Shown in pieces: positions 37,120-63,080 of a DNA stretch of 64,000 nucleotides; the stretch's first letter is position 1; every line of letters begins with the position of its first letter. A program made the position numbers and the translations under genes. This DNA is from Candidatus Eiseniibacteriota bacterium. GTDB lineage: Bacteria > Eisenbacteria > RBG-16-71-46 > CAIMUX01. The stretch is taken from positions 269,809-333,808 of the forward strand of contig JADJQY010000042.1 of the NCBI GenBank assembly GCA_016712505.1, given 5' to 3'. Below the pieces are notes generated by a model, which saw only the letters and a program-made list of their open reading frames with translations, searched no databases and was not told where the DNA came from.

Positions 37120-37150
37120 TCTATCGATAACGATACAACGTTATCATTTT
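37120..37150. promoter_or_regulatory. Candidate Fur-box-like inverted repeat in the promoter of the Cys-rich protein gene
   Basis: ATCGATAACGATACAACGTTATCAT contains a perfect GATAACG/CGTTATC inverted repeat. It sits within an AT-rich patch ~70 bp upstream of the start at 37057 and resembles the site upstream of fur at 41108..41142. Confidence 0.35.
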
Positions 37151-41107: not shown

Positions 41108-41142
41108 GTGATAGTAACGATAAACAAGTATCAATTATCGTC
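41108..41142. promoter_or_regulatory. Candidate Fur box in the divergent fur / lipoprotein-TonB receptor promoter region
   Basis: GTGATAGTAACGATAAACAAGTATCAATTATCGTC has GATAA/TTATC half-sites (ACGATAA...TTATCGT inverted repeat). It lies in a conspicuous AT-rich island ~40 bp upstream of the fur ATG. Confidence 0.45.
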
Positions 41143-43362: not shown

Positions 43363-44325
43363 ATGCTTCGGATCGGTGACCCTGCACCTTCATTCCGTCT
43401 TGCCTCCACCTCCGGACGGGAGGTGTCGCTGGAAGATTTCCGCGGACACAAGATCGTTCGCTACTTCTATCCGAAGGATGAGACGTCCGGCTGCACCAAG
43501 GAAGCGTGCGACTTCCGGGACAACATGCATCGGCTGAGCGATGCCGGAGCGGTCGTGCTCGGCGTCTCTCCCGATTCGATCGATTCGCATCACGGCTTCC
43601 GGGCCAATCATGACCTTCCCTTCGACCTTCTGAGCGACCCTGATCATGAGGTGGCGAAGGACTACGGTGCCTATGGCGAGAAGATCAGCTACGGCACCCC
43701 CACGCTGGGAATCATCCGCTCGACGATCGTGATCGACGAGCTCGGGTATGTGGACGCAATCTGGTCGCCGGTCACGGTCGACGGACACGCGGAGCAGGTG
43801 ATCGACTTCCTCTACGGACGCACGTCGTCCCCGGGGGAGGCGGCCATGGACTCCACGCCCCGCAAGTCGCCCGCCCCTGCGGCGAAGAAGGCCACCAGCC
43901 CGAAGAAGACCGCTGCTCCGAAGAAAGCGCCGGCTGCCAAGCCGGCCCCCGCTTCGAAGCAGGGTGCTTCACCCAAGAAGTCCGCCTCGGCGGGCGCGAA
44001 GCCGGCTGCCAAGAAGTCCGTGGCGGGCGGTGCGAAGGCCGGTTCGAAGAAGAAGGCGGCGAAGAAGGCCGTCAAGAAGGCAGCGCGGAAGGCCACCAAG
44101 ACGGCGGCCAGGAAGGCAGCCACGAAAACCAGCAAGGAGGCAGCGAAGATGATGGCGAAGAAGGCGGGCAAGAAGGCCGCGAAGAAGGCGACCAAGAAGG
44201 CCACCAAGAAGACCGCCAAGAAGGCGACCAAGAAGGTGACGAAGAAGGCCGCCAAGAAGGCCGCCAAGAAGGCGCCCAAGAAGGCCGCCAAGAAGACCGC
44301 GAAGAAGGCCACCAAGAAGGCCTAA
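43363..44325 (+). CDS. bcp: Bcp/PrxQ-type thiol peroxidase fused to a C-terminal histone-H1-like Lys/Ala-rich tail
   Basis: The N-terminal ~150 aa form a peroxiredoxin (YPKDETSGCTKEACDFRD). The last ~170 aa are AKKA/KKAT repeats (12-bp AAGAAGGCSRCC tandem repeats in the DNA), as in H1/Hc1/AlgP tails. There is a strong GAGGAGG RBS. Confidence 0.8.
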   Translation: MLRIGDPAPSFRLASTSGREVSLEDFRGHKIVRYFYPKDETSGCTKEACDFRDNMHRLSDAGAVVLGVSPDSIDSHHGFRANHDLPFDLLSDPDHEVAKDYGAYGEKISYGTPTLGIIRSTIVIDELGYVDAIWSPVTVDGHAEQVIDFLYGRTSSPGEAAMDSTPRKSPAPAAKKATSPKKTAAPKKAPAAKPAPASKQGASPKKSASAGAKPAAKKSVAGGAKAGSKKKAAKKAVKKAARKATKTAARKAATKTSKEAAKMMAKKAGKKAAKKATKKATKKTAKKATKKVTKKAAKKAAKKAPKKAAKKTAKKATKKA

Positions 44326-50833: not shown

Positions 50834-50952
50834 CCAGCCGCCCGGCCATTGGCCGAGAATGGTGATTATTCATGTCCGATGCGGGCCTCACGCGTCGCCA
50901 CTGGGGGGGGAGTCGAAGCAACCCATCCCCCAAGTCGCGGAGGTTACCGTTC

Positions 50953-53919
50953 ATGGATCGTTCTTGCCTGCCCCACTGCGCGCATCGGAGCACCCCCTCC
51001 ACGAGGGGACGCTGGGCCGTACCGTCGGCCAGGCTAGCGGCCGCACTGCTTCTCGCAACCCCGCTGGCCGTCCCCGCGGCCGCTCCGCAGCTGCTGCTCG
51101 ATCAGGTGATCGGAAGCAGTCGAATCGAGAGTCCGGTTCGGCGGAATGCCAGTACCTTCGTCGGGATCGAAGGACCGAACTACGGCATCGCGCGGTACCA
51201 CCCGACCGCGGGTTGGTCGGTGATCACCGCTCCTCCAATGAAGTCCGAGGTCTACCCGTTACTGGTCGGTGATCAGGTCTACTTCTGGGGCACGCCATCG
51301 TATGTCGATGACCGGCGTCGGCTCTATCGGGTCGACGGCGACACCGCGGTCGAGCTGGCGGTGACGAGCGATCCGAGCTCCGACCGGGAGATCCGCTCGC
51401 TCAACGGTCTGGCCCTGTTCGTCCTCGGCGACCCGGCGCACGGAACGGAACTCTGGGTCAGCGATGGCACGCCGGGAGGCACGGAGTTGCTGCTCGACCT
51501 CAACCCCAGCGGAAGCTCGGTCCCCCGTCTGGGGGCCGCGAGCGCCGGCTACATTTACTTCCGTGCCTACGATCCGACTCATGGCTCGGAGCTGTGGCGC
51601 ACCGATGGCACTCCCGGAGGTACGACGTTGGTCGCGGATCTCGTCCCCGGCGTGGACGGTTCCTTCCCGGACGATTTCACCGAAGTGAACGGGCTCGTTG
51701 TCTTCACGGCCCGAACTTCGGTCGTCGGGGAGGAACTTCACCGCACGGATGGCACCTCCGCGGGCACCTACCTGATACGCGACCTGTACCCGGGCGTGTG
51801 GGGTTCCGACCCCGCTCAACTCGCATCGATCGACGGATGGGTCTACTTCGCGGCGCGCACGCCGACCGAGGGAATCGAGCCGCATCGGACCAACGGGAAC
51901 GTCATCCAGCTGGTGCGCGATGTCGATCCCGGCGCTGCCTGGTCCTGGCCGAGCGGGTTCTTCGGCTATGACGGTGAGGTCTACTTCGCTGCATTCCAGG
52001 ATGCGACCGGCTTCGAGCTCTGGAAGACCAACGGCCTCTCTTCCGGGACGTCGTTGGTTCTGGATGCCAGCCCCGGCATCGGGTCGGTCGCGCCGCACTC
52101 GTTTCGAGAGGTCGACGGCGTGCTCTATTACCTGGGCTATCGTGACGGGGGGAGCAATGAACTCTGGCGCACTGAGGGAACCGGCGGGAGTACGTCTCGC
52201 ATCGTGCTCTATCCCGGTGTCGAGGAGGAGGTCAGCGCCTTCTTCGACGATGGCAGCCGGTTGATCGTCGGGGCCAACGACGGCACGACGGTGGGTCACG
52301 AGCCGCGTCGCTACAATCCGGCCAACGGAAACCTCACTCTCTCCGCCGATCTCAATCCCGAGAGCGACGCGAACAACGAGATGCTCGCCCCCTACGGCGA
52401 CGATCTGCTTGCCGTCCAGGAGAGCTATCTGCACGGCCGCGATCTCTCGCTCTACTTCCTGAATGACCTGGACGCATCCGGCTCGTTCGACACCGGTGGC
52501 GGGCGAGAGTCGAACTTCCCGGTCGGAGCGAAGTACGCCATCTCGGGAGAAATGCTCTACTTCATCCAGTGGCAGATCGATCTCGGCCTCGAGATCGCGG
52601 TGTGGGACGGCGACGATCTGTATGAGATCGACCTCTTCGCTGGTCCCGAGGGATCGGAGCCGAGCGACCTCGCGGTCACCGCCGATGGTCGCTGCTTCTT
52701 CATCGCCCGGCGCGACGACGGCGCCACCTACGGCCTCTATCGCCTCACGCCTCCTCCAAATCCCACTCCGGTCCTGGTCGCGTCGTTCGGGGACATCACG
52801 CCGCGCGATCTCGTGGCACTCGGAAACCAGGTGGTCTTCGTCGCCACCGATCCAGGCGGGGGTGAGGACCTCTGGGTGTCGAACGGAACCCAGGCGCGCC
52901 GGATCCTGGACATCGAGCCAGGCCCCGGTACCGCAGCTCCGGCCGATCTCACCGTCGTGGGCGATCAGCTTTACTTCACCGCCGCGACCGCGGCGGCCGG
53001 TCGTGAGCTTTGGGTCACCGATGGCTCCGAGGAAGGAACCCATCTCGTCACCGACCTGGTTCCGGGGCCTGCGAGTTCGGGCGTCGGGCAACTCACAGCC
53101 GGCCTGCCCTACCTGTACCTCACCGCTACCACGTCTGCGACCGGGCTCGAACTCTGGCGCGCCACTTCCGCCGGCATCGAGGCGCTGGCGGAGATCGTGC
53201 CCGGCCCGGGAAGCGGCACACCGACCGACCTCGCCTTCTGCGGATCCCGGCTCCGCTTCAGCGCCGACGACGGGAGCGGTCGCGGACGTGAACCCTGGTC
53301 GCTCACCGGGGAGCGCACACCCGTCTTGACCTTCGATCTGAATCCCGGCGCCGGCTCGTCCAATCCGCGCGACTTCGGCGACCACCTGGGCGCAACCTAC
53401 TTCACGGCAGACAACGGGAGCTTCGGACGCGAGCTCTGGCGGGTCGCCGGCGGTACGCTGGAAGCGGTGAGCGAATCGATCGTGCCCGGCGCCGCCTCGT
53501 CGGCGGTCGGCGATCGCGCCACCGTCGGCTCGAAGCTCTACTTCGTCGCCGAGAGCGCCGCCTTCGGCCGCGAGATCTGGTGGGTCAGCGATCCCGGCGG
53601 CGCCGCCGACACCCCCACCGCTCCCATGCTCCTCACGCCTCCCGCCCCCGGCCTCGCCCTCTCGGTCGGCCCGAATCCGTTCGTCGACCAGCTCGATCTG
53701 CGCTTCCGTCTCCCCCAGGCCAGCCCGGTTCGGGTGTCACTCATTGATGTAGGCGGCCGGGAACTCGAGCGGCGGTCGTTCACCCACCTCGATGTAGGGG
53801 CTCATCAGATCCCCTGGCCGATCAACCATCCCACGGCCCGGCGCGGCGCCGGCGTGCTCTTCGTGCGCATCGAGGCCGCCGGTCTGACCGAGGTCCGGAA
53901 GGTGCTTCGGGTGAGGTGA
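50953..53919 (+). CDS. Giant secreted ELWxxDGT-repeat protein with a T9SS C-terminal sorting domain
   Basis: About 17 tandem ~50-aa repeats centred on ELW(R/K/V)(T/S)DGT..GT.LV (TIGR04534-like). Signal peptide. The C-terminus (SVGPNPFVDQLDLRFRL...GVLFVRIEAAG) is a T9SS CTD. Confidence 0.75.
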   Translation: MDRSCLPHCAHRSTPSTRGRWAVPSARLAAALLLATPLAVPAAAPQLLLDQVIGSSRIESPVRRNASTFVGIEGPNYGIARYHPTAGWSVITAPPMKSEVYPLLVGDQVYFWGTPSYVDDRRRLYRVDGDTAVELAVTSDPSSDREIRSLNGLALFVLGDPAHGTELWVSDGTPGGTELLLDLNPSGSSVPRLGAASAGYIYFRAYDPTHGSELWRTDGTPGGTTLVADLVPGVDGSFPDDFTEVNGLVVFTARTSVVGEELHRTDGTSAGTYLIRDLYPGVWGSDPAQLASIDGWVYFAARTPTEGIEPHRTNGNVIQLVRDVDPGAAWSWPSGFFGYDGEVYFAAFQDATGFELWKTNGLSSGTSLVLDASPGIGSVAPHSFREVDGVLYYLGYRDGGSNELWRTEGTGGSTSRIVLYPGVEEEVSAFFDDGSRLIVGANDGTTVGHEPRRYNPANGNLTLSADLNPESDANNEMLAPYGDDLLAVQESYLHGRDLSLYFLNDLDASGSFDTGGGRESNFPVGAKYAISGEMLYFIQWQIDLGLEIAVWDGDDLYEIDLFAGPEGSEPSDLAVTADGRCFFIARRDDGATYGLYRLTPPPNPTPVLVASFGDITPRDLVALGNQVVFVATDPGGGEDLWVSNGTQARRILDIEPGPGTAAPADLTVVGDQLYFTAATAAAGRELWVTDGSEEGTHLVTDLVPGPASSGVGQLTAGLPYLYLTATTSATGLELWRATSAGIEALAEIVPGPGSGTPTDLAFCGSRLRFSADDGSGRGREPWSLTGERTPVLTFDLNPGAGSSNPRDFGDHLGATYFTADNGSFGRELWRVAGGTLEAVSESIVPGAASSAVGDRATVGSKLYFVAESAAFGREIWWVSDPGGAADTPTAPMLLTPPAPGLALSVGPNPFVDQLDLRFRLPQASPVRVSLIDVGGRELERRSFTHLDVGAHQIPWPINHPTARRGAGVLFVRIEAAGLTEVRKVLRVR

Positions 53920-53949
53920 GGCGAGGTGCGACCCCGCGGCGGGCGACCG

Positions 53950-54025
53950 TGCGGCCGGGCGGCCGGGCGGCGGGCGCCGGGCGGCGGGCGGCGGGCGGCG
54001 GGCGGCGGGCGACCGGGCGGCAGGG
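53950..54025. repeat. Simple (GGCGGGC)n-like tandem repeat
   Basis: About 10 direct copies of GGCGGGC/GGCCGGGC, immediately after the stop of the ELWxxDGT gene. Confidence 0.6.
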
Positions 54026-54471
54026 GGGCAGCGCGAACGGCGGCGGAGTCGGGTGCGATGGAGCGGGGAAGAACGAGGCGCGGGCGTGCGGGACGCGGCA
54101 CGGGAGGCGCCGGTGGCGACCTGTGGTGCGTCTCCAGGTATGCCGCCGGCACCTGTCGAGCCGGAGGAGGTGCTCCGGTTGGCGTTGCTGCCGTGGGGAC
54201 CGCCGGAGTCACCGCAGCCACGGTCGCGACCGCAACGTTTCGCAGTGCGATCTTCGATAGGCTTCTCAACAAGCCACCCCGCGCGAGCGGATCGACATCA
54301 TCGGAACCCACGGGACCCTTGGAGCGAGAGGAGGTCGGCACTCGGGCACGTCACCACCGGAAACCTGGCAGAAGACGATGCGCATCTCAGGTTCCGAGCG
54401 CCAGTCGAAACCGCGCCACGCAGCCCCGGGAGAAGGCCAGTGGCCACCGCCAGCACCGCGGCCACCGGGGC

Positions 54472-54493
54472 GAACTCGTCCCGGGACGAGTTC
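54472..54493. repeat. Perfect 22-bp palindrome GAACTCGTCCCGGGACGAGTTC (copy 1 of 2), followed by an AT-rich island (54494..54570)
   Basis: It is exact reverse-complement self-identity. The 20-bp core AACTCGTCCCGGGACGAGTT recurs at 60469..60488. Confidence 0.7.
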
Positions 54494-54761
54494 ACCTCAT
54501 TCTACAACACGTTACAATTCCAATCATCGAAATAACATATCTCATAATGGTAGCTAGAGTAGGGACCTGAACATCCGTGTCCGCTGGTAGCTGGCCGTGT
54601 CCCCTCCTGTCCACGGTCACCCACGATTGGCGCCTGCCCGGACCGGTCGGCGAATCGGGTCCTGTCACACCTGCCCCGATCACGCAGAACATCAGGAGCG
54701 GCCCCGGTGTGTCGACCCGATGAGACGGCTATCGCGAGCGCCCGCCGTGCGGCAACCCAGG

Positions 54762-57700
54762 TCAGAGGCCGGCAGCGGCCTTGCGCAGGATTCGCGCGTT
54801 GTGCGGGACCACGCGAAGGAAGCGCTCCCGCGCTGCAGCGTCGCCGATCGCATCGGCCTGCCGCATCAACTCCGCCCGCGCCTCCGCCAGTACGGAGGCA
54901 GCGGCGGGATCGCCGGAGGCGGTCAGAGCGTCGAAGATGGCAAGGAGCTGCGCGGGGCGTTCGGTGATATCGCCCGGCTCGGGGGCGTCGATGGCGGACC
55001 GCAGATCCCGCGCGTGCTCGAGCGCCCGGTCAGTGTCGCCGCGCGCGAGAGCAGTGCGCACCAGTCCTTCCAGCGCCTCCGCCTGCATCCCGGCGTCTTT
55101 CCCCGCGTCGATCCGAGCTTCGGCGAAACTCGATTCCGCAGCCTCGACGTCATGGGCCGCGAGAAGCGCGTGGCCGCGGCCCAGAAGGGCGGTGATGCGG
55201 AACCAGCGATCGCTGGCGGGCAGGAGATCGAGAGCGGCTTGCATCTCCGCGAGCGCAAGCTCGACCTGACCTTCGAAGAGCGCGAGCTGTCCACGGCGTA
55301 CCCGCAGGAGCGGTTCGCTGTGACGATTCCCCAACTGCCGGGAAAGTCGGAAGCCGACGTCGACCGCCTGCCTCCAGGTTTCGATGTCGCCGAGCGTTCG
55401 CGCCATCCCCGCGAGATTGCAGTAGCTGGACAATTCACCGGCGCGGTTCCCGCGCAGGCGATCGTTTTCGAGGCCGGTCTGCACGTAGGCCAGGCCCGCC
55501 GAGAGATCACCGAGCTTCCAGGCAGCGATCGCGGCAGAGGTGACCGCCTGGGAGGGAGGGAGAACCCCTTCCGCCTCAGCCGCGGCCAAGGCCTGGCGCG
55601 CAACCGCATGCGCCTCTTCGGCGCGGCCGTGCGTGCAGAGCGCCCATGCCGAGATAGCATACGCCGCCGCCAACGGGGCGGACTGTCCGCGCGCCTCGGC
55701 GCGGCGGGCCAGCTCGACCACCGATGCGGCCCCCGCCGGATCCGGCGCCGGCTCCCGGAAGATGGCCAGCTCGACGGCCAGCTCCGCGCGGAGCCCATCA
55801 TCGTCGCGCCGCTCCGCGATGGCACGGGCCGCCTCGACGTGCGGGATCGCGAGCTCGGGCCGACGCATCTCCAGATGGCAGCGCATGACGATCTGGTGCA
55901 GGCGGAGCCGGAGCTGCTCATCCGATTCGGAGACCAGCGCCAGCGCACCCGTCGCCAGCCTGTGCTGCTCTTCGAGCCCCATGCGCCCCGCATCTTCGAG
56001 CGCGAGCACATAGTAGTGCCCCGCAGCGTCGGCATTACCCGCGCGATCGTAGTGATCGGCGACCCAGCTCGCGGTCGCCTCGCCACGTTCCGCCGCACCG
56101 GCCGTGTGTTCGGCAACCCGCGCGTGCCACGCCATGCGTTCGCGCTTCAGCAAGCTGTCGTAGGCGACCTCCTGTAGAAGCTGGTGATGGAAGCGCCACT
56201 TCCCCTCTCCGTCCGCGTAGACCAGGCCTCGTTCCTGCAGCGCCGGAAGCAGGCCGGCGGCTCGTGCATCGATTGCGCCCAGATCAACCTCGGAGAAGCG
56301 CGGTCCAAGAATCGAGGCCTGCTGCAGACTTCGCCGCGCCTCTCCGTCGAGACGACTCAACCGGGCCTGTAGAGCACCGGTCAGGGTGACCGGCAGGCGG
56401 GGCAACAGAGGCCCTCCTGATCGGCTCCCCTGCTCACGCTCCTCTTCTGCAAACTCTCGGTGATCGACCAGCATCCCGATCAGCTCTTCCAGGTAGTACG
56501 GATTCCCCTGCGCCCGCGCGAGGAGCTGAGTCAGGGTCTCCTCCGGGACCTGCGTGGTCTGGGCGAGAACACGAGCGGCGAGCTCCCGGCTCTCGGCCTC
56601 ACGGAGCGGAGAAAGCTCCAGCGTGAACGCGGCATCCCGCCGCGACGACCACCCCGGTCGTCGCTCGAGCAGCGATGGGCGGGCGAAGGCCACGACGCAG
56701 AGGGGCAAGTCCGCGTTGGCCAGAAGCCAGAGATCGAGCAGATCGAGGCTCGCATCGTCGGCCCAGTGCAGATCCTCGAGCACCAGGAGCAGAGGCGAAC
56801 CGGCGGTGTAGTTTCGGAGCCAGAGCGTTGCGGCATGAAACGCCCGCTGTCGCAGCAAGCTGCGTTCCGCGCGAAGGGGGCGCACGTGAGGACTGTCTCC
56901 GAAGCCGATGCCGAGCGCATATCCGAGAAGGTGGGCCAGCGCCGCAGGATCGCTCCCCTGCCCGTGGGTCCCGTTCGCGCGGACCCCTTGCCCATGAGGT
57001 CCCTCCGCATCGACCAGAAGCGACTGCGCGTACTCCGACCCGAGCGCCAGTTCCGGAGGAAGTGGCCCCTCTTCCCCCTGCCCATCGAGAGACCGCAACA
57101 CCAGTTCGCGCAGGAGACTGAAGGTCTGCCCCTCGGTTCGCGGCAACGCCGTGGCGAGAAGCACGCGGGTTCCCCGCCCGCGCTGCTCCTCGAGGAACGT
57201 CTCACACAGACGGCTCTTGCCCAGCCCGGCGTCCCCGATCACCGTTACCGCGCGAGCGCGCTTGTGCGCGACGACTGCCTCCACGGCGGCGTGCAAGGTG
57301 GCTAGCTCCCGGCTCCGACCGACCATTGCCGCCCGGTGCGAGGACGGCCCACGCCCTGCGCCTCGCTCCCCCGCGGAGAGCAGGCGTAGGACACGGTAGC
57401 TCTCGAGCGGCGCGTCGAGCCCTTTGACGCGGAGCGGAGGGAGAACGATCGCCTCGACCCCACCGCGGAGCAGTCGATGGGTATCGCGGCTGATCCGCAA
57501 GGTTCCCGCAGCAGCCGCCTGCTCCAGACGGGCGGCGAGATGGACTGTGGCCCCCACCAGGGTCTGCGACTCTTCGACGCCGGAACCGATCGCCACTGGC
57601 CCGGTGTGGAGGCCGGCCCGGACCGCGAAGCCCTCGAATCCGTGCGTACGTCGAACCTCTTCCGCGTGGACAACGGCCGCCTCGAGGATCGCCAGACCGG

Positions 57701-58097
57701 CGGCGACCGCTCGTTCGGCGTCGTCCTCCGCCGGTTCGGGAACACCGAACGCGGCCTTGAGCCCATCCCCGGTGAAGCGGAGCACCGAACCACCCTGCGC
57801 GCGGACGATCTCCGAGAAGCGGCGGAGCGCTCCGTCCAGGACCCGATGGCTCTCCTCGACGTCGAGCGCTCGGACCAACCGCGTCGACTCCACGATGTCG
57901 ACAAAGAGCACGCTCACCTGCCGGAGCCAGGGAGAGTCTTCCGCTCCCTCCAGTCGCGCGAGACGCTGGCGCAACGGCGCGAGCGCGATCTCGAGAACCG
58001 TCGGACTCAAGGTCTCGGCCTGGCCCCGCAAGGCGGCCATCGCGGCGCGGATCTCGCGCGCTTCTTCCAGGGGATCGAGATCCGGCGACATGCTCAT
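54762..58097 (-). CDS. Class III adenylyl/guanylyl cyclase fused to a STAND/AAA ATPase and TPR repeats
   Basis: N-terminal cyclase homology domain (VLFVDIVESTRL...RFTGDGLKAAFG). P-loop VTVIGDAGLGKSRL. A long TPR-like C-terminus. The ATG overlaps the stop of the upstream SulP-cNMP gene (ATGA). Confidence 0.85.
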   Translation of the reverse strand: MSMSPDLDPLEEAREIRAAMAALRGQAETLSPTVLEIALAPLRQRLARLEGAEDSPWLRQVSVLFVDIVESTRLVRALDVEESHRVLDGALRRFSEIVRAQGGSVLRFTGDGLKAAFGVPEPAEDDAERAVAAGLAILEAAVVHAEEVRRTHGFEGFAVRAGLHTGPVAIGSGVEESQTLVGATVHLAARLEQAAAAGTLRISRDTHRLLRGGVEAIVLPPLRVKGLDAPLESYRVLRLLSAGERGAGRGPSSHRAAMVGRSRELATLHAAVEAVVAHKRARAVTVIGDAGLGKSRLCETFLEEQRGRGTRVLLATALPRTEGQTFSLLRELVLRSLDGQGEEGPLPPELALGSEYAQSLLVDAEGPHGQGVRANGTHGQGSDPAALAHLLGYALGIGFGDSPHVRPLRAERSLLRQRAFHAATLWLRNYTAGSPLLLVLEDLHWADDASLDLLDLWLLANADLPLCVVAFARPSLLERRPGWSSRRDAAFTLELSPLREAESRELAARVLAQTTQVPEETLTQLLARAQGNPYYLEELIGMLVDHREFAEEEREQGSRSGGPLLPRLPVTLTGALQARLSRLDGEARRSLQQASILGPRFSEVDLGAIDARAAGLLPALQERGLVYADGEGKWRFHHQLLQEVAYDSLLKRERMAWHARVAEHTAGAAERGEATASWVADHYDRAGNADAAGHYYVLALEDAGRMGLEEQHRLATGALALVSESDEQLRLRLHQIVMRCHLEMRRPELAIPHVEAARAIAERRDDDGLRAELAVELAIFREPAPDPAGAASVVELARRAEARGQSAPLAAAYAISAWALCTHGRAEEAHAVARQALAAAEAEGVLPPSQAVTSAAIAAWKLGDLSAGLAYVQTGLENDRLRGNRAGELSSYCNLAGMARTLGDIETWRQAVDVGFRLSRQLGNRHSEPLLRVRRGQLALFEGQVELALAEMQAALDLLPASDRWFRITALLGRGHALLAAHDVEAAESSFAEARIDAGKDAGMQAEALEGLVRTALARGDTDRALEHARDLRSAIDAPEPGDITERPAQLLAIFDALTASGDPAAASVLAEARAELMRQADAIGDAAARERFLRVVPHNARILRKAAAGL

Positions 58098-60433
58098 CCT
58101 TCCAGCGCGTCCACCACGGTCACGAGGTGCGCGACCCGCGCTGCGAGGCGCTCGGCCACCAGTCGGTGAAGCGCCGCGGCGATCTCCGGCGCCTCGCGCT
58201 CCAACCGAGTCAGTTCTCCCGACGCCAGACGGTAGACCACGGTCTCCTCGTCCGCCACCACCGCCGCGGTGCGGGTCGCTCGGAGGTAGAATCCCACCTC
58301 GCCAAGAACCGCGCCCGGCTCCCGTGAGGTCTCGAGCCGGATCGGCGCCTGACCGGTCTTCTCGCGAAGCGCGCTCAAGGCGCCGGACTCCAGAAAGTAG
58401 AGATCGTCCGCCGGGTCGCCGTGTGTGACTAGCCTGTCACCAGCGCCAAGCACCTTCCGTTCCAGGCACGCCCAGAGCTGATCGGTCGCCCCCCCGCCAA
58501 GCTGACGCGAGAGAAGTTCCCGGAGCGATCGCGGTGTCGTCCACGCAGAGTGTGCCGCCCGAGATTCCCCCATCCGAGATTCCGCCTCCTGCGAGTCTCC
58601 CGCCCGAGATTCCGCCGCCCGAGATTCCACCGCCCGAGATTCCGCCTCGCGCAGAAGCTGGTTCTCACACCATTCGAGCCCGAGGTCGAGGTTGGCGAAC
58701 TGCCGGTACCCTGCCCGCCGCTCGGGCAACGATCCTGCTTCGAACTGCGCGCGCACGCCGCTCGCCGCGTGGGTCAAGACCAGATCCACCTGGTGTCGAG
58801 AGAGGAGGGCGTGCAAGCGCGCGAAGCTCTGCGCGACGCTGCTGTCGACGCCGGTGACCCGACGGCAGTCGAGAATGAGGAAGCGAAGGTCGGGTCCGGG
58901 GGCAGATTCGAGTTGTTCGCGTGCCCGGGCCAGAAGTCGATCCGCGACACCGAAGAAGAGGAACCCTTGCAGCTCGAGCACCCGGATCGCGCCGCCACAC
59001 TTCGACAACTCGCTTCGCTCGGCGGACGAGCGTGAGACGCGGCTTCCGTACCGAACCGCCGACAGATCGTTTCGCACCGGATCGATACGCCCGTAGTTCA
59101 CGGCGAACAGGGCCACCGCGGCGACCAGTCCGCAGATCACCCCGGGGAGGAAGCCGACCAGCACCGTCACACCGACGATCAGGACCACGATCCCGTGATC
59201 CAGCGCGGAGAGGCGCCCCCACGACTGAACGATCCAGTCGCGCGCCATGGAGAGGGCGACGAAGAGGAGGAGCGCACCCAGCACGGCGCGGGGAATGCTC
59301 GCCAGGGCGCTCGCCCCGAAGAGCAGGGTCAGGGTGGCCAGCAGCCCAGCCCAGGCGCCGACCCAACGGGTGCGGGCACCGGCGCGGACATTCATCGCGG
59401 AGAGGCCGAGTTGCTGGTACCCGGGCAACCCTCCGAGGGTACCGCTGGCGAGATTGGCGACGCCCGCGGCCTTGAGTTCGCGATCGAGATCCACCGACCG
59501 ACCCGTGGCCGTCTCGAGCCCCGCGCCGTTCAAGAGAAGTGCGACCGCGGTCACGATCGGCATGGTCGCCATCTCTCCCGCGACGCGCCGCAGCGCGGTC
59601 CAGTCGACTGCAGACCAGTCGATGGCTGCGGGGAGAGGAGCGATCGAGGCCGCTCCGGGAACGCGGAGCAACCATCCCGCGTCGGCCAAGGCCGGCGTCG
59701 TCCAGCCGAGCGCGCGTGCGACGCCATGGAACGTGACGATCCCGACGACGACGGCGGCGAGCATCAGGAGTGGATGGGACGCCCGGCGGCTGAGAAGTAG
59801 CATGACCAGCGCCCAGATCACGGCCGGCGCCCAGCGCAACGGTTCCTGCCCCGCGTTCGATCCAGCCAGCATGATCCCGAACGCCCCCTTCGCCAGCAAC
59901 CACCCCGAGCCTGCCAGCACGCCGCCGATCACCGGGTAGGGAAGGAACCGCACCATTCGCCCGGCACGCCAGTGACCGAGGAGGATCAGCACCACGCCCG
60001 TCCAGACCGTGCCGAGTCCCAGGACCACGGCGACGGTGGAAAAGAGCGCCTCGTCGGAAACCCGGCCGGAGAGCGAAGTCACGACCGCCCCCGACATCGT
60101 TGCCAGGATGGCAACGGGCACACTCTGGGTTCCGCCAACCGTTCCGGGCAGCGACGCGAACAGGCCGATCGCGGTCGTGTTCAGCGCAGTGGCGATCAAC
60201 GCGAGGGCCAACCCTTGGGCAAGGTGAGGAGCAAGAGGTCCGGGGAAGAGCAGAGCGGCGAAGGAGACGGCCATCACGACCGAGACGGTGCCCACGATCA
60301 GGCCGCCCGGGAGGCCGCTCCAGGCTCCGGTCGTCGAACCGTCCAGGGAGGATTCACGCATGTCCCAGGATATCAGATGGGTTGCCGGCGCAGTCCGGCC
60401 GGGGGGCCGCCAGGTCCGACGCCACACGCGCAC
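58094..60433 (-). CDS. SulP/SLC26-family anion transporter with a STAS domain and a C-terminal cyclic-nucleotide-binding domain
   Basis: About 10-12 TM SulP core, a STAS-like segment (LELQGFLFFGVADRL), an (A/G)ESR(A/M) repeat linker, then a cNMP-binding domain (DDLYFLESGALSA...GEVGFY). The alternative start is MRESSL at 60361. Confidence 0.8.
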   Translation of the reverse strand: MRVWRRTWRPPGRTAPATHLISWDMRESSLDGSTTGAWSGLPGGLIVGTVSVVMAVSFAALLFPGPLAPHLAQGLALALIATALNTTAIGLFASLPGTVGGTQSVPVAILATMSGAVVTSLSGRVSDEALFSTVAVVLGLGTVWTGVVLILLGHWRAGRMVRFLPYPVIGGVLAGSGWLLAKGAFGIMLAGSNAGQEPLRWAPAVIWALVMLLLSRRASHPLLMLAAVVVGIVTFHGVARALGWTTPALADAGWLLRVPGAASIAPLPAAIDWSAVDWTALRRVAGEMATMPIVTAVALLLNGAGLETATGRSVDLDRELKAAGVANLASGTLGGLPGYQQLGLSAMNVRAGARTRWVGAWAGLLATLTLLFGASALASIPRAVLGALLLFVALSMARDWIVQSWGRLSALDHGIVVLIVGVTVLVGFLPGVICGLVAAVALFAVNYGRIDPVRNDLSAVRYGSRVSRSSAERSELSKCGGAIRVLELQGFLFFGVADRLLARAREQLESAPGPDLRFLILDCRRVTGVDSSVAQSFARLHALLSRHQVDLVLTHAASGVRAQFEAGSLPERRAGYRQFANLDLGLEWCENQLLREAESRAVESRAAESRAGDSQEAESRMGESRAAHSAWTTPRSLRELLSRQLGGGATDQLWACLERKVLGAGDRLVTHGDPADDLYFLESGALSALREKTGQAPIRLETSREPGAVLGEVGFYLRATRTAAVVADEETVVYRLASGELTRLEREAPEIAAALHRLVAERLAARVAHLVTVVDALEG
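58550..58650. repeat. In-frame 15-bp tandem repeat (~6 units, CCGCCCGAGATTCCG-like) inside the SulP-cNMP gene
   Basis: It encodes the AESRA/GESRM pentapeptide-repeat linker between the STAS and cNMP domains. Confidence 0.7.
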
Positions 60434-60467
60434 CCCTGAGCGAGCGGCGAAAGCGGCACCCGTGGTG

Positions 60468-60489
60468 CAACTCGTCCCGGGACGAGTTG
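60468..60489. repeat. Perfect 22-bp palindrome CAACTCGTCCCGGGACGAGTTG (copy 2 of 2), ~35 bp upstream of the SulP-cNMP start codon
   Basis: Same 20-bp core as at 54473..54492. Confidence 0.7.
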
Positions 60490-60614
60490 TGAGTCGCCAG
60501 CCGGGCTTGCCGGGGAGACGGGAGGAGGTAAAGGTTTGGGTGAAGGCGAGGGTAAAGGTGAGGGTGAGGCTGAAGGAGCGTGGAACTTGCCCGGCTCTCC
60601 GCGACCAAACTCAA

Positions 60615-60640
60615 GTCGACTCTCCCCGGGGAGAGTCGAC
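60615..60640. repeat. Second perfect palindrome GTCGACTCTCCCCGGGGAGAGTCGAC (26 bp)
   Basis: An AT-rich island (60641..60715) abuts it and contains an imperfect AT-rich inverted repeat AGAGTATTACGA...TAATTACTCT. Confidence 0.6.
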
Positions 60641-60847
60641 CATGTTTCGTAATATAATTAGAGTATTACGATTATGATAATTACTCTCATATTGATTGGC
60701 ATCGCCAGCCCCGGCCACGAGGAGTCGCGGGCCGACCCGAAGCCGTAGCGAGGACGTCTATGCCGCACGTCGCCCGAGACCCGGCGCCCGCCGACGGGGG
60801 CCCTGAGCCGAGGTGCACAACCACCCCTTCCGTCCGGCGGTCCCGCA

Positions 60848-62443
60848 TCAACGTCCCGATCCGTCCCGCCGCCGGATCTCCGCCCGCACCGCTTCCAGCT
60901 CCGCGTCGCGTCCTTGCGCGATGTCTTCCACCCTGGGGACCACGAACAGATCAGGCTCAAGCCCGGCATCCGGCCACTTCCCCTGGCGGAACTGTCCGAT
61001 CAAGGGGAGATCGAGCTCGAGGCCGGTGCGCGGCAGGCGCAGGAAGAAAAAGGCCCCGCCGTTGATGCCGCGTTGGTTGCCGCCGGTCGGTTGCCCGACC
61101 AGCAGACCGAGTCGGTTTTGGCGCACCGTCTGCGCGAACTCGAAGGTCGCGGAACTATTGGCGGCACCGACCAGCACCCAGAGCCGGCCGGCGAACCGAG
61201 GAAGCGAGGGAGTGATCACCGCTCCGAGATCGTCATCGGCGTCCCGCCGGAGACGGTAGAAGCGATCGGTCGAATCGATCGCCGCCGCCCCCCAGTCCTT
61301 GAAGCTGGGGTCCCAGGTGTCGAGATACGGAAGCAGGTCGTCGGGCACCCTTCGATACCGCACGAGTCGGGTGACCGCCTGCCGTGGGATCGGCTCGGTC
61401 ACCAGGTGGCTGACCAGCACATCGCCGACGTCGCTTCCTCCTTCGTTGTTCCGCAGATCCACAACCAGATCGGTCGCGCCGCTCGCGACCAGCGACGCGA
61501 AGGTCTGTTCAAGGAACCCCTTCCAGTCCCAGCTGGTGTTGTACAGCACCCAGCTCGGCATGCGCAGATAGCCGATCCGGTCCTCGAGCAGGCGGTACTC
61601 CCAGATCGGCGCCGCGCCGTCCGGACTCGCCTCGCTGGCCCCCTCGTTGGCCGGCTCGTGACCCGCCTCGATCACCGGCAGACGGTCCGTGAACGCCACC
61701 AACGGTACGGTGACCCTCCGCGCCGACAGATCACCTGGCGCGCGGACGAAGAGGGTCACGAGGCTTGCGTTCGCGGGAAAGAAGAGCGGCCAGTAGATGT
61801 CGAACGCCTCGAACCGGCTCGTCCCCTGCACTTCCAGGTCCGCGACCCGCTTCGCATCGTTGTTGCCGTCGGCTCGCGCCACCGTCGTGAGTCGCGCGAG
61901 AATCGTGGCAACTGGCACATCGTTGATCGCCAGGACCTCCGTTCCAGGGAGAATCGACTCCTCGGAGGCGAACGACCGGGTAACGATCATCCGATCCCCC
62001 AGCCAGCGGAAGTAGAACGGGAGCCGCGGCGACCGAAAGAGCGCGGCCGCGACCGACTCCGCCTGATTGAAGAAGTTGGGATAGGTATGACCGCACTTCA
62101 CCTTGGCCGCGAGCAAAGAGAGTCCCAGGTACGCCTGGCCGAGAGTTCGGTCCTGGCCAAACTCCTTCTCCAAGGCGTCGAACGCCGAGTCGATCTGGGC
62201 CGGAGTGTTGTAACGCAGCAAACCCGGATGCAGCGTCTCGTAGGCGCGCCGGAGCACCTGCAGGTCTGCCTTGAGGTCGGTCGACCGCAGCACCGAGTCG
62301 GCCCCACTCGGCGGGACGGACGGAGCAGCGCTGAGCCCGTCGAGCTCGGCGGCCTCCGAGGGCGCGCCGATCCCGCTCGCCAGCAGCAGCAGTACGAGTC
62401 CCGGCAGGCGACCGAGGCGACCAAGGTAATCATTCTTCACGTG
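60848..62443 (-). CDS. S41-family peptidase (tail-specific/C-terminal processing protease-like), secreted
   Basis: S41 fold markers: VDLRNNEGGS (the conserved Ser is the nucleophile) and ...VLVGAANSSATFEFAQ. Signal peptide. The likely GTG start is at 62443. Confidence 0.65.
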   Translation of the reverse strand, partial: HVKNDYLGRLGRLPGLVLLLLASGIGAPSEAAELDGLSAAPSVPPSGADSVLRSTDLKADLQVLRRAYETLHPGLLRYNTPAQIDSAFDALEKEFGQDRTLGQAYLGLSLLAAKVKCGHTYPNFFNQAESVAAALFRSPRLPFYFRWLGDRMIVTRSFASEESILPGTEVLAINDVPVATILARLTTVARADGNNDAKRVADLEVQGTSRFEAFDIYWPLFFPANASLVTLFVRAPGDLSARRVTVPLVAFTDRLPVIEAGHEPANEGASEASPDGAAPIWEYRLLEDRIGYLRMPSWVLYNTSWDWKGFLEQTFASLVASGATDLVVDLRNNEGGSDVGDVLVSHLVTEPIPRQAVTRLVRYRRVPDDLLPYLDTWDPSFKDWGAAAIDSTDRFYRLRRDADDDLGAVITPSLPRFAGRLWVLVGAANSSATFEFAQTVRQNRLGLLVGQPTGGNQRGINGGAFFFLRLPRTGLELDLPLIGQFRQGKWPDAGLEPDLFVVPRVEDIAQGRDAELEAVRAEIRRRDGSGR

Positions 62444-63080
62444 CGGCTCCCAACAGGTCCGTCGCGCGACGCGTGGACACCTCATACCGCAGCTCCGCAA
62501 ACCCCACACCGACCTGCCGGACCGAGACCAGGCGAAGAGGAGGTTCGGTAACCCGCCGCGGGAAGAGCGGCTTCCCAGCCCCCAGGGTCACCGATCCCAC
62601 CTGCAGGATCAACTCGTTCAGCAGTCCTGCATCGTGGAACTGTCCGGCCAGATCCCCGCCTCCGACGATCCAGATGTTCTTGTCCCCTGCCGCGGCGCGC
62701 ATCGCTGCGTGGACCGGCCGCACATCGCCCTGGACGAACGAGATGTTTGCCCCGGGGATCGTCGGCCCAGGGATGGTCGGCCCAGGAATCGTCGGCCCAG
62801 GAATCGTCGGCCCAGGAATCGTAGGCAATGCACGCGTCGAGAAGACCCATGTCGGCTGCGTATAGGGCCACGGCGAGCCCATCTGAGCCGCGATCGTCTC
62901 GGCGTGTCGCAGCATCCACTCGTAGGTCTTCGCTCCCATGGCGAGAGCACCCACCTCGGCGATGAACTCTGGATAGCTCGTGTCGTCCACGTCGCCCAGC
63001 GGAAACAGCCAGTCGAGCGAGTCGTCCTCGGTCGCGATGAAGCCATCGAGGCTGGTCGCGGTGTAGTACTGCGTCTTCAT
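62430..63080 (-). CDS. Dihydrofolate-reductase-like (RibD C-terminal domain family) protein with an inserted (TIPGP)5 repeat
   Basis: RibD_C signature (ATSLDGFIATEDDSLDWLFP...AMGAKTYEWM...IWIVGGGDLAGQF). A 15-bp tandem repeat (62752..62830, GGGCCGACGATTCCT x5) encodes PTIPGPTIPGPTIPGPTIPGPTIPG in a loop. Confidence 0.75.
   Translation of the reverse strand: MKTQYYTATSLDGFIATEDDSLDWLFPLGDVDDTSYPEFIAEVGALAMGAKTYEWMLRHAETIAAQMGSPWPYTQPTWVFSTRALPTIPGPTIPGPTIPGPTIPGPTIPGANISFVQGDVRPVHAAMRAAAGDKNIWIVGGGDLAGQFHDAGLLNELILQVGSVTLGAGKPLFPRRVTEPPLRLVSVRQVGVGFAELRYEVSTRRATDLLGAAREE

Follow-up and report, generated by a model that had tools for sequence, protein, structure and literature searches.

INTRODUCTION

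Repetitive extragenic palindromes (REPs), bacterial interspersed mosaic elements (BIMEs) and the pairing of REPINs (REP doublets) with RAYTs (REP-associated tyrosine transposases) are known in Enterobacteria, Pseudomonas and Stenotrophomonas (PMC2817692, PMC3116915, PMC3733652). REPs usually number more than 100 copies per genome (PMC2817692) and are defined by a GTAG or CGTC tag at one end (PMC3733652). Here we analyse a 64,000-nucleotide stretch of DNA from a Candidatus Eiseniibacteriota bacterium (contig JADJQY010000042.1, positions 269,809 to 333,808; the whole stretch is called the window), in which two perfect palindromes with the 20-nt core AACTCGTCCCGGGACGAGTT lie on either side of an operon for a cyclic nucleotide (cNMP)-binding SulP transporter and a class III nucleotidyl cyclase. 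The palindromes of the window are likely to be solitary bystander copies of a dispersed extragenic palindromic repeat, and not regulators dedicated to the operon.

The repeat resembles REPs and BIMEs in being short, GC-rich, dispersed and extragenic, in its enrichment after genes and between convergent genes, and in forming mosaics. Like the REPIN–RAYT systems, it has a genome-specific sequence and is associated with a nuclease gene, here of the HNH family, flanked by apparently cognate repeats. Unlike the imperfect REPs, the members of this family are perfect, loopless palindromes, and the core recurs in metagenome-assembled genomes (MAGs) labelled as different phyla. Moreover, and again unlike the REP–RAYT case, the nuclease gene can contain an in-frame copy.

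Two further systems bear comparison. REP13E12, the '13E12 repeat family' (DUF222 plus HNH) of Mycobacterium tuberculosis, goes back to Gordon et al. (1999), as cited in PMC10589994. This is the nearest known repeat, likewise a repeated chromosomal unit around an HNH-endonuclease open reading frame (ORF). Our comparison was by Pfam scan only: Pfam DUF222 was unmatched, so that membership of our HNH family in DUF222 is not supported, and the hosts are of different phyla. The REP13E12 unit is about 1.3–1.4 kb long and its ORF has an N-terminal helical domain; to our knowledge, no cognate 22-bp palindrome has been described for it. The second comparison is with ParB–parS, Noc–NBS and KorB–OB (10.1101/724823), where dimeric helix-turn-helix proteins, of the fold matched by our HNH-family protein, have from a few to tens of perfect palindromes as sites. 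The Noc-binding site is likewise CCCGGG-centred, and specificity changes in the ParB, Noc and KorB systems are symmetric in both half-sites. In contrast to these systems, the arms of our sites are unrelated to parS or NBS, the place of the CTPase/ParB N-terminal domain is taken by an HNH domain, the sites lie outside genes with a bias to 3′ ends, and binding is here a prediction only.

RESULTS

The palindrome is dispersed beside unrelated genes

Within the window the 20-mer occurs exactly twice, at 54473–54492 and 60469–60488, as the preliminary description of this locus had recorded. Both copies are intergenic, each is in fact a 22-bp palindrome, and no third copy was found in the window when up to three mismatches were allowed (0.02 expected by chance). 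The presence of identical perfect palindromes at both ends of the operon, and nowhere else in 64 kb, would suit a pair of operon-specific operators, at which a dimeric and possibly cNMP-responsive factor would bind both ends and regulate or insulate the operon, for example by looping. The wider distribution of the site argues otherwise.

When the GTDB representative genomes (one per species) were scanned for exact matches, 47 loci were found, in MAGs whose labels span several phyla. By record title these are Eisenbacteria (several MAGs), Vicinamibacteria/Luteitalea, Myxococcales, 'delta proteobacterium', Armatimonadota and Limnocylindrales. The 65 genes beside the 47 sites represent 94 Pfam families, for example SecA, NadA, LptF/G, DnaB, TsaD and RecQ, so that the same site stands beside unrelated housekeeping genes in many genomes. 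Among these 65 neighbours there was no enrichment of cyclase, cNMP or Crp genes; the clustering near cNMP- or Crp-family genes that the preliminary description had envisaged is therefore not seen. That description had also named random REP-like scatter of the palindrome as fatal to its own reading, and what we observe comes close to this, although the scatter is not random.

The copies within one genome belong together. The 'delta proteobacterium' MAG has five loci, and the flanks, which differ across lineages, are alike within a genome: GGCATGGCGACTCGCTGACA recurs on one side in the Eisenbacteria MAG OTE_20, and GAgAAgTGAACAAt in the delta MAG. These are thus true intragenomic repeat families. 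In the Eisenbacteria loci the 20-mer also stands in mosaics with the small palindromes AACTGTCCCCGGGGACAGTT, AACCTGCCCCGGGGCAGGTT and GGTGTCTGCGCAGACACC.

Other repeats were noticed at some of these loci (numbered with the prefix L). In MAG WB9_2_064 a second repeat, GGGGGAAGAGAGGATCCTTCGGCTCCGCCTCAGGATGACGGGGG, directly adjoins the palindrome in several loci (L006:580-690, L028:830-880), and in the Eisenbacteria MAG swi_bin.170 (L005, L027, L029) the palindrome is flanked by or nested within a further dispersed inverted repeat, GAAATGACAGGGCC...GGCCCTGTCATTTC, which suggests that the intergenic DNA of Eisenbacteria contains composite mosaics of several small repeat families. In L006 and L034 the palindrome comes after a canonical terminator that follows a tRNA- or tmRNA-like 3′ end.

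A viral collection contained neither a copy of the 20-mer nor a relative of the HNH family. Literature searches on the sequence, on Eisenbacteria palindromes and on HNH-associated palindromes returned nothing relevant, and the repeat family, linked as it is to an HNH/ParB-like gene, seems not to have been described before.

Symmetric variation and genomic position

A metagenome scan with the degenerate pattern AACTYGYYCCGGRRCRAGTT gave at least 130 matches, in at least 120 loci. Perfect palindromes make up 81% of the 130 matches listed, against the 12.5% that would be expected if the degenerate sites varied independently, and all eight symmetric variants of the pattern are present among the matches listed. 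The family, whose hosts are GC-rich environmental bacteria, has the form S-AACTYGYYCCGGRRCRAGTT-S, with ends S-AACT...AGTT-S. The symmetry reaches only 1–2 nt past the 20-mer core; the first outward base is G in 63% and C in 31% of cases, and thus G or C in 94% of flanks. Such symmetric variation fits the co-evolving half-sites of a protein as well as it fits a hairpin, and to that extent a dimeric binder of the kind that an operator pair calls for would also account for it.

The genomic position of the copies speaks more clearly. Gene positions were taken from a crude caller based on G+C at third codon positions (GC3), a point that tells against too close a reading of the following counts. 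For all copies, 29 lay in convergent and 4 in divergent gaps, and 135 neighbouring gene ends were 3′ against 86 that were 5′. For copies that are not linked to an HNH-family gene (solitary copies, see below), the corresponding figures were 27 convergent against 2 divergent (p 1.6e-6) and 115 against 64. This pattern is as for REP-like elements, or for sites tolerated only away from promoters, and is the opposite of that of an operator; divergent promoter regions are avoided family-wide.

It is nevertheless extremely improbable that these are classical REP or REPIN elements mobilised by a RAYT, a Y1 HUH transposase. They are indeed dispersed GC-rich stem-loop palindromes that lie outside genes, preferentially at 3′ ends and in convergent gaps, and the Eisenbacteria mosaics with other small palindromes recall those of BIMEs. 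However, neither GTAG nor CGTC occurs as a terminal tag at the ends of the family, the linked gene belongs to an HNH and ParB/KorB-like family and not to the Y1 HUH enzymes, and the copies seen are few, where REPs typically number over 100 in a genome (PMC2817692). No HUH-Y1 candidate emerged when about 1 Mb of flanking DNA was screened by motif, a weak argument given that RAYTs are single-copy.

Association with an HNH-family gene

Two contigs of a Luteitalea MAG hold a 1267-nt repeat of 98% identity, which ends 6 nt past the palindrome and encodes a 352-aa protein. This protein is 43% identical (E 9e-77) to one from Myxococcales loci, where the gene is bracketed by copies of the same palindrome. 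The palindrome loci were searched with these proteins and with a family profile, and a palindrome was counted as linked when it lay within, or no more than 400 nt from, an HNH-family ORF. By this measure 51 of 181 palindromes are linked (∼28%), as are 18 of 61 with the exact window 20-mer and 48 of 167 loci, against no match in control DNA that totalled 196 kb and included the window. Solitary copies thus account for 72% of the total.

The linked copies take up preferred positions relative to the start codon of the HNH gene: 35–270 nt upstream, within the gene at +480 to +626, and at or just after the stop at +1014 to +1370. In both of two loci picked by the protein alone, a family palindrome has its centre 267 nt ahead of the start codon, with a further copy near the stop in one of the two. 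Within one HNH unit the palindromes are of the same variant, which differs from unit to unit. Copies inside the gene are invariably translated in a single frame, as [QE]L[AV]P[GE][RQ]V, with the symmetry kept despite amino-acid changes (R/Q, G/E or A/V), and they fall in a linker that the structure model leaves disordered. In the OTE_20 MAG, solitary copies have ∼20 nt of flank in common with the copy inside its HNH gene. The right flank of the second copy in the window, GTGAGTCGCCAGC, has GAGTCGCC in common with the OTE_20 HNH-gene flank and with the flank conserved in Eisenbacteria copies.

The protein family is abundant, with at least 4,842 homologues, nearly all of them unnamed and with either no Pfam domain or a weak match to PF01844. 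The protein is about 350 aa long, and its C-terminal 70 residues form an HNH domain (PHROG HNH families, ∼1e-5 to 1e-6; Pfam HNH, 8e-4). The AlphaFold model has a mean pLDDT of 75, rising above 90 for residues 10–130, and in Foldseek comparisons the N-terminal domain resembles Noc and Myxococcus xanthus ParB. A ParB/KorB-like DNA-binding fold is therefore predicted for this domain, with moderate confidence. Given such a fold, recognition of the palindrome by the protein is a concrete, testable idea; it would also lend the operator pair some plausibility, as the site family would then be tied to a DNA-binding protein.

We tentatively propose, as a possibility that may well prove wrong, that the palindrome is the cognate site of this abundant and mostly 'hypothetical' family (ParB/KorB-like domain, linker and HNH domain), and that the two together make up an undescribed selfish or domesticated repeat system of GC-rich soil bacteria. 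In such a system, a nuclease-based counterpart of REP–RAYT, the gene would be flanked by its own sites, sometimes with one in frame inside it; the site would co-evolve with the protein, and solitary sites would be seeded across the chromosome at the 3′ ends of genes.

Just upstream of the ATG of the HNH genes there is a conserved GAAAAA-N-GTG(C/A)TA, which suggests a leaderless transcript. A search of eight HNH loci against Rfam was negative.

The palindromes of the window

The features of the window and the HNH units of related loci are collected in Table 1.

Table 1. Positions of the features discussed; all refer to the window except those of the HNH units, which are given by locus
Feature	Position	Strand	Remarks
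ELWxxDGT-repeat protein gene	50872..53919	+	Converges on cyclase gene
Copy 1, GAACTCGTCCCGGGACGAGTTC, 22-bp perfect palindrome	54472..54493	none	In convergent gap
AT island	54494..54570	none	Abuts copy 1; + strand sigma-70-like match TTCACC-16-TACAAT
Class III nucleotidyl cyclase + AAA_16 (STAND) ATPase + TPR, 1111 aa	54762..58097	minus	
SulP/SLC26 transporter with STAS and C-terminal cyclic-nucleotide-binding domain, 755 aa	58094..60361	minus	
CTGATATCCT	60367..60376	minus	Ends 5 nt upstream of SulP ATG
Copy 2, CAACTCGTCCCGGGACGAGTTG, 22-bp perfect palindrome	60468..60489	none	Between S41 peptidase and SulP genes
Degenerate GGGTGA / GGTAAAGGT repeats	60538..60576	none	C/T-rich on operon strand
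26-mer, GTCGACTCTCCCCGGGGAGAGTCGAC, 26-bp perfect palindrome	60615..60640	none	
AT island	60641..60715	minus	Abuts 26-mer; ATGCCA-17-TATCAT and TTATCA-18-TATATT on operon strand
S41 peptidase gene	60848..62509	minus	Upstream of operon
HNH units of ∼1.4 kb in related loci	L010:191-1457; L040:684-1949; L017:4331-5760; L174:11365-12759; L180, L181		

Copy 1 falls within a convergent gap, beyond the stop codon of the cyclase gene by 268 nt and beyond that of the ELWxxDGT-repeat gene by 552 nt. Copy 2 lies 358 nt past the stop codon of the S41 peptidase gene and ∼107 nt upstream of the SulP start codon, and not the ∼35 bp first estimated, since the SulP gene is likely to start at the ATG at 60361. 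At 843 and 486 nt, the gaps that hold the palindromes are of unusual length. The outer arms of the two copies read GAAC...GTTC and CAAC...GTTG, respectively, so that the outermost pair has been exchanged in a compensatory way. The 26-bp palindrome noted earlier is also present, and together with copies 1 and 2 it makes up the full set of long palindromes centred on CCCGGG in the 64 kb. The 20 nt at its centre correspond, as a doubly compensated variant, to AACTGTCCCCGGGGACAGTT, the palindrome known beside the 20-mer in other Eisenbacteria, and the 26-mer is probably a solitary copy of the family as well. As RNA, the hairpins of copy 1, copy 2 and the 26-mer have predicted energies of -20.8, -13.2 and -21.4 kcal/mol, with fold z-scores that range over the three from -3.3 to -4.2 (copy 1, -4.2).

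These stable stem-loops, with the strong 3′-end and convergent bias of the family, raise the question of whether the palindromes are plain factor-independent bidirectional terminators that arose locally, their recurrence reflecting convergence of GC-rich hairpins. Perfect palindromes with arms of at least 9 nt are common enough in these loci (∼1 per 7 kb) to lend this some weight, and the 26-mer has weakly T-rich tails on both strands and was flagged as terminator-like. We regard this explanation as unlikely. Neither 20-mer copy is followed by a T-tract, and family-wide only 1.5% of outward flanks have five or more T in 10 nt; with T-tracts essentially absent, canonical intrinsic terminators are excluded. 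The absence of a T-tract had already been stated in the preliminary description, correctly for both 20-mer copies. Local convergence is also at odds with the identical copies and common asymmetric flanks within genomes, with the physical link to one protein family at fixed positions, the coding linker included, and with the single variant kept within each HNH unit. Termination may nonetheless be an activity of the copies, one that is compatible with the repeat explanation.

Returning to the operator pair, the position of copy 2, ∼107 nt upstream of a start codon, is what might be expected of an operator. Copy 1, however, sits in a convergent gap with no gene there to regulate, no regulator gene adjoins the operon, and the palindromes are absent from the operon's 72%-identical orthologue and from more distant ones (see below). 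Given also the dispersal of the site beside unrelated genes and its downstream bias, the dedicated operator or insulator first envisaged is distinctly improbable.

The operon and its relatives

The preliminary description had a SulP-STAS-cNMP gene coupled to a cyclase-STAND-TPR gene by an ATGA overlap. This is borne out by the overlap of the SulP stop and cyclase start at 58094-58097 and by the Pfam domains, which are Sulfate_transp, STAS and cNMP_binding in the first protein and Guanylate_cyc, AAA_16 and TPR_MalT in the second. The Sulfate_transp and STAS matches (95.7 and 40.6 bits) are above their cutoffs and place the transporter in the SulP/SLC26 group, with TIGR00815 scoring below its own (122.9 against 380). 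The start at 60361 is the same as in an annotated, 98%-identical orthologue and is aligned with that of the 72% orthologue. The cyclic-nucleotide-binding (CNB) domain scores 44.5 bits against a cutoff of 27.5. Its phosphate-binding cassette is intact, with the Gly-Glu and Arg-Thr-Ala elements kept, and GEVGFYLRATRTAAVVA of this domain aligns with GELALMYNSPRAATVVA of the PKA regulatory subunit and also with bacterial CNB domains.

The cyclase domain (residues ∼60–200) has both metal-binding Asp residues: FVDIVEST and FTGDG align with CyaB (3r5g) and are invariant in five orthologues. The Thr of class IIIb enzymes and the catalytic Arg are also kept. However, Arg stands at the position of the substrate Lys (LRFTGD), and His at that of the transition-state Asn (TVHLAAR). 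All four substrate and transition-state positions are invariant in orthologues from Eisenbacteria to Aquabacterium, down to 38% identity, and the subfamily may make a product other than cAMP or work differently. Because of the Lys-to-Arg and Asn-to-His substitutions, the label 'adenylyl' that the enzyme had been given is unproven. The earlier picture of a cyclic-nucleotide producer next to its receptor otherwise stands, in that the gene pair, its conserved adjacency and the binding cassette all agree with it.

The best NCBIfam match of the cyclase gene is to a TOMM kinase/cyclase fusion family and is far below the cutoff. At the level of single domains only, PADLOC matched PycC to the cyclase domain (2.4e-16) and PycTIR to the CNB domain (2.2e-11). 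In this operon a full SLC26 transporter takes the effector's place, and the neighbouring genes are housekeeping genes without a defence context. The linker between the STAS and cNMP domains (58555-58643) is encoded by a 15-nt tandem repeat in ∼6 copies, giving (A/G)ESRx pentapeptides. The 98%-identical SulP orthologue is 5 residues shorter, and the linker may therefore be variable in length.

The closest protein, the 98%-identical orthologue, comes from a Candidatus Eisenbacteria MAG (GCA_020851285.1, contig JADZDC010000208), with intergenic DNA ∼99% identical. The SulP-STAS-cNMP architecture is widespread, with 263 matches and the same three domains in all matches listed. A class III cyclase gene adjoins the SulP-STAS-cNMP gene in six of nine sampled lineages, including a betaproteobacterium. 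In four of them (the window species, the 72% and 50% relatives and Aquabacterium) the order is the same and the gap is 8 nt or less; one lineage has the reversed order and one a divergently transcribed cyclase gene. In a seventh lineage a BTAD-TPR gene takes the place of the cyclase. The 72%-identical orthologous operon has another upstream neighbour and lacks all three palindromes as well as the AT islands, and no flanking palindromes were found at five other, more distant orthologous loci. Judged by its sequence and conservation, the operon is a separate conserved module of a STAND-regulated class III cyclase and a cNMP-binding SLC26 anion transporter.

Comparable pairs are known. In Xanthomonas, XC_0250 (a class III cyclase that makes cGMP) is linked to XC_0249 (a cNMP-binding GGDEF protein) (PMC3770947). 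As in this pair and in Pycsar (PycC with a cNMP-binding effector), the cyclase here is encoded beside a cNMP-binding protein, an arrangement in which the messenger would be made and read locally. Here, unlike in those pairs, an SLC26/SulP-STAS anion transporter serves as the receptor, and a STAND ATPase-TPR sensor module is fused to the cyclase. Mycobacterial STAND-type class III cyclases (Rv0386 type) and MalT-like STAND regulators have the order cyclase, AAA_16/NB-ARC-like ATPase, TPR. The window cyclase has the same order of domains, and non-canonical substrate-defining residues as in the Rv0386 type, but it has no C-terminal LuxR helix-turn-helix domain, its specificity pair is Arg/Thr, and its transition-state Asn is His. 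We found no description of the SulP-STAS-cNMP and cyclase pairing in the literature.

The conserved gene pair is found in a different neighbourhood in every lineage sampled, which might suggest that the palindromes are the ends of a mobile cassette carrying the operon, a structure that would mirror the HNH units. The same variant at both ends would fit this, as would the Luteitalea repeat, which ends so close to the palindrome within one MAG. We consider it very improbable. The preliminary description had called for a comparison of composition between 54.5 and 60.5 kb and the rest; the G+C content and GC3 of the operon are native, the correlation of relative synonymous codon usage (RSCU) with the rest of the window is 0.94–0.95, and a foreign origin was rejected on these measures. 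Orthologous modules lack flanking palindromes, the 6 kb span compares with ∼1.4 kb for the HNH units, the operon's own upstream region separates copy 2 from the operon, and there is no nuclease gene in the window. Each copy is, moreover, equally well explained as a site at the 3′ end of a neighbouring gene. The earlier suggestion of a mobile or repeat element boundary was thus in the right direction as regards a repeat element, and is disfavoured as regards the operon as a mobile cassette.

Intergenic surroundings

The AT-rich islands that had been pointed out beside the palindromes are indeed anomalous, with 50-nt GC minima of 0.28 and 0.22 in a window of 67.2% GC. Five such islands are present in the window, two of them at the operon. 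Only copy 1 is abutted by one, as had been claimed for both; copy 2 is 152 nt away from the second island, and it is the 26-mer that abuts it. The supposed similarity of the two islands (TCATAAT-GTA) is at the level of chance, with 11–33% of shuffles scoring equally well, and homology among all five islands is likewise at chance level, with the exception of TAACGATA, which is common to islands 1 and 2. These two islands lie upstream of gene starts, and the octamer in them (37128-37135 and 41115-41122; two matches, 0.07 expected) sits within TATC/GATA-rich dyads and may be a shared regulator site.

All three sigma-70-like matches found between 53.7 and 61.0 kb (0.4 expected) are inside the two islands of the operon, and the other three islands of the window lie 7–400 nt upstream of gene starts. 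For these reasons the simplest reading of the two islands is as unrelated, promoter-like AT-rich intergenic segments. The match on the + strand in the island at copy 1 faces the cyclase gene from its 3′ side; neither strand has a called gene downstream of this island, and no gene or known RNA was found that explains it. The island at the 26-mer is a candidate distal promoter of the operon, from which a transcript would have a leader of ∼290 nt containing the 26-mer and its weak U-rich tail. A candidate proximal promoter is provided by CTGATATCCT, which with ∼30 nt around it is the sole upstream part conserved in the 72% orthologue (L049), the rest being unalignable. The SulP ATG has no Shine–Dalgarno sequence, whilst GGAGG precedes many other genes of the window, and a transcript from this promoter would be leaderless. 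The degenerate GGGTGA repeats reported between copy 2 and the 26-mer are present, and their third-position composition differs from that of window genes.

Searches for known RNAs (Rfam at the gathering threshold over the whole window and at E≤5 in both intergenic regions, and a tRNA scan) were negative. Protein-coding ORFs between 53.9 and 54.76 kb were rejected: GC2 and GC3 are about equal, the products would be Pro/Arg/Ala-rich, and the ORFs are uncalled in a near-identical annotated contig. When the two long intergenic regions were compared with the loci analysed here, the matches were to the palindrome itself and to GC-rich simple repeats only.

Several tandem repeats were noted. Directly after the stop codon of the ELWxxDGT-repeat gene, a G-rich repeat (53928-54046) begins that has ∼12–13 copies of GGCGGGC-type heptads, reaches 84% GC and could form a G-quadruplex. 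It is one 7-nt unit different from the near-identical contig L048 and is therefore strain-variable. Upstream of the S41 peptidase gene are five copies of the 15-nt repeat CCCAGGAATCGTCGG (62736-62839). Between 44033 and 44358 a 12-nt periodicity with 17 overlapping copies runs through the gene at 43363..44325, with AAGAAG-rich codons; its Lys/Ala-rich product resembles a histone H1-like or other low-complexity basic protein, and an AT island lies 200 nt upstream.

DISCUSSION

The dispersal of the palindrome beside unrelated genes, its bias towards 3′ ends and convergent gaps, and its absence from orthologous operons carry the conclusion that the window copies are likely to be bystanders. How they might have come about can be outlined as follows. 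An HNH-family protein would recognise the palindrome, whether by binding duplex DNA as a dimer or by reading a cruciform or hairpin. The HNH system would leave solitary copies behind or seed them, deletion between flanking copies being one possible route, and these copies would persist where they are harmless, at the 3′ ends of transcription units. The window copies would then mark two such borders, the convergent gap after the cyclase gene and the gap after the S41 peptidase gene, the second of which doubles as the upstream region of the operon. They would act only generically, by forming stem-loops in transcripts (-13 to -21 kcal/mol) or by binding protein, such as the HNH-family protein if the genome encodes it; the analysis gave no sign of a role particular to the operon.

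Several observations weigh against this picture of seeded bystanders. Both copies and the 26-mer are all found in the two gaps that flank one operon, a coincidence that we roughly estimate at ∼5–7% if placement is random among ∼30–45 gaps. The copy number is low for a classical REP, with at most six exact loci per fragmentary MAG (an Eisenbacteria MAG) and two copies in the 64 kb of the window. As perfect palindromes are so common in these loci, a specific 20-mer could recur a few times by chance, and part of the cross-phylum recurrence could be chance among GC-rich perfect hairpins; we estimate a few such copies, compared with 0.5 under a random-sequence model. Nevertheless, the genomes with multiple copies, the shared flanks and the protein link together indicate that the repeat family is real. 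With regard to the HNH gene, a profile search of the six-frame translated window found no family member or remnant (best E 0.83, at unrelated places), and no decayed HNH gene was detected in its long intergenic regions. The in-gene position is seen in 1 of 120 protein-selected homologues, its frequency in the palindrome-locus sample being inflated by the way the loci were chosen. The structural match of the N-terminal domain to the ParB/KorB fold is also only moderate.

For the window, the consequence is that the palindromes should not be used for inferring cNMP-dependent control of the operon. If the tentative HNH repeat system does exist, the window copies would be seeded sites and could expose the operon to nuclease-driven recombination or to insulation. 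If the HNH-family protein does recognise the palindrome, it would represent a second partnership of a repeat with a nuclease besides REP–RAYT, and the family would offer a natural set of co-varying pairs of protein and DNA site. Annotation pipelines would gain from recognising these repeats, as spurious ORFs often cross them. Independently of the palindromes, the pair of SulP-STAS-cNMP and cyclase-STAND-TPR genes would tie a second messenger directly to an SLC26 anion transporter, and as such is a testable module.

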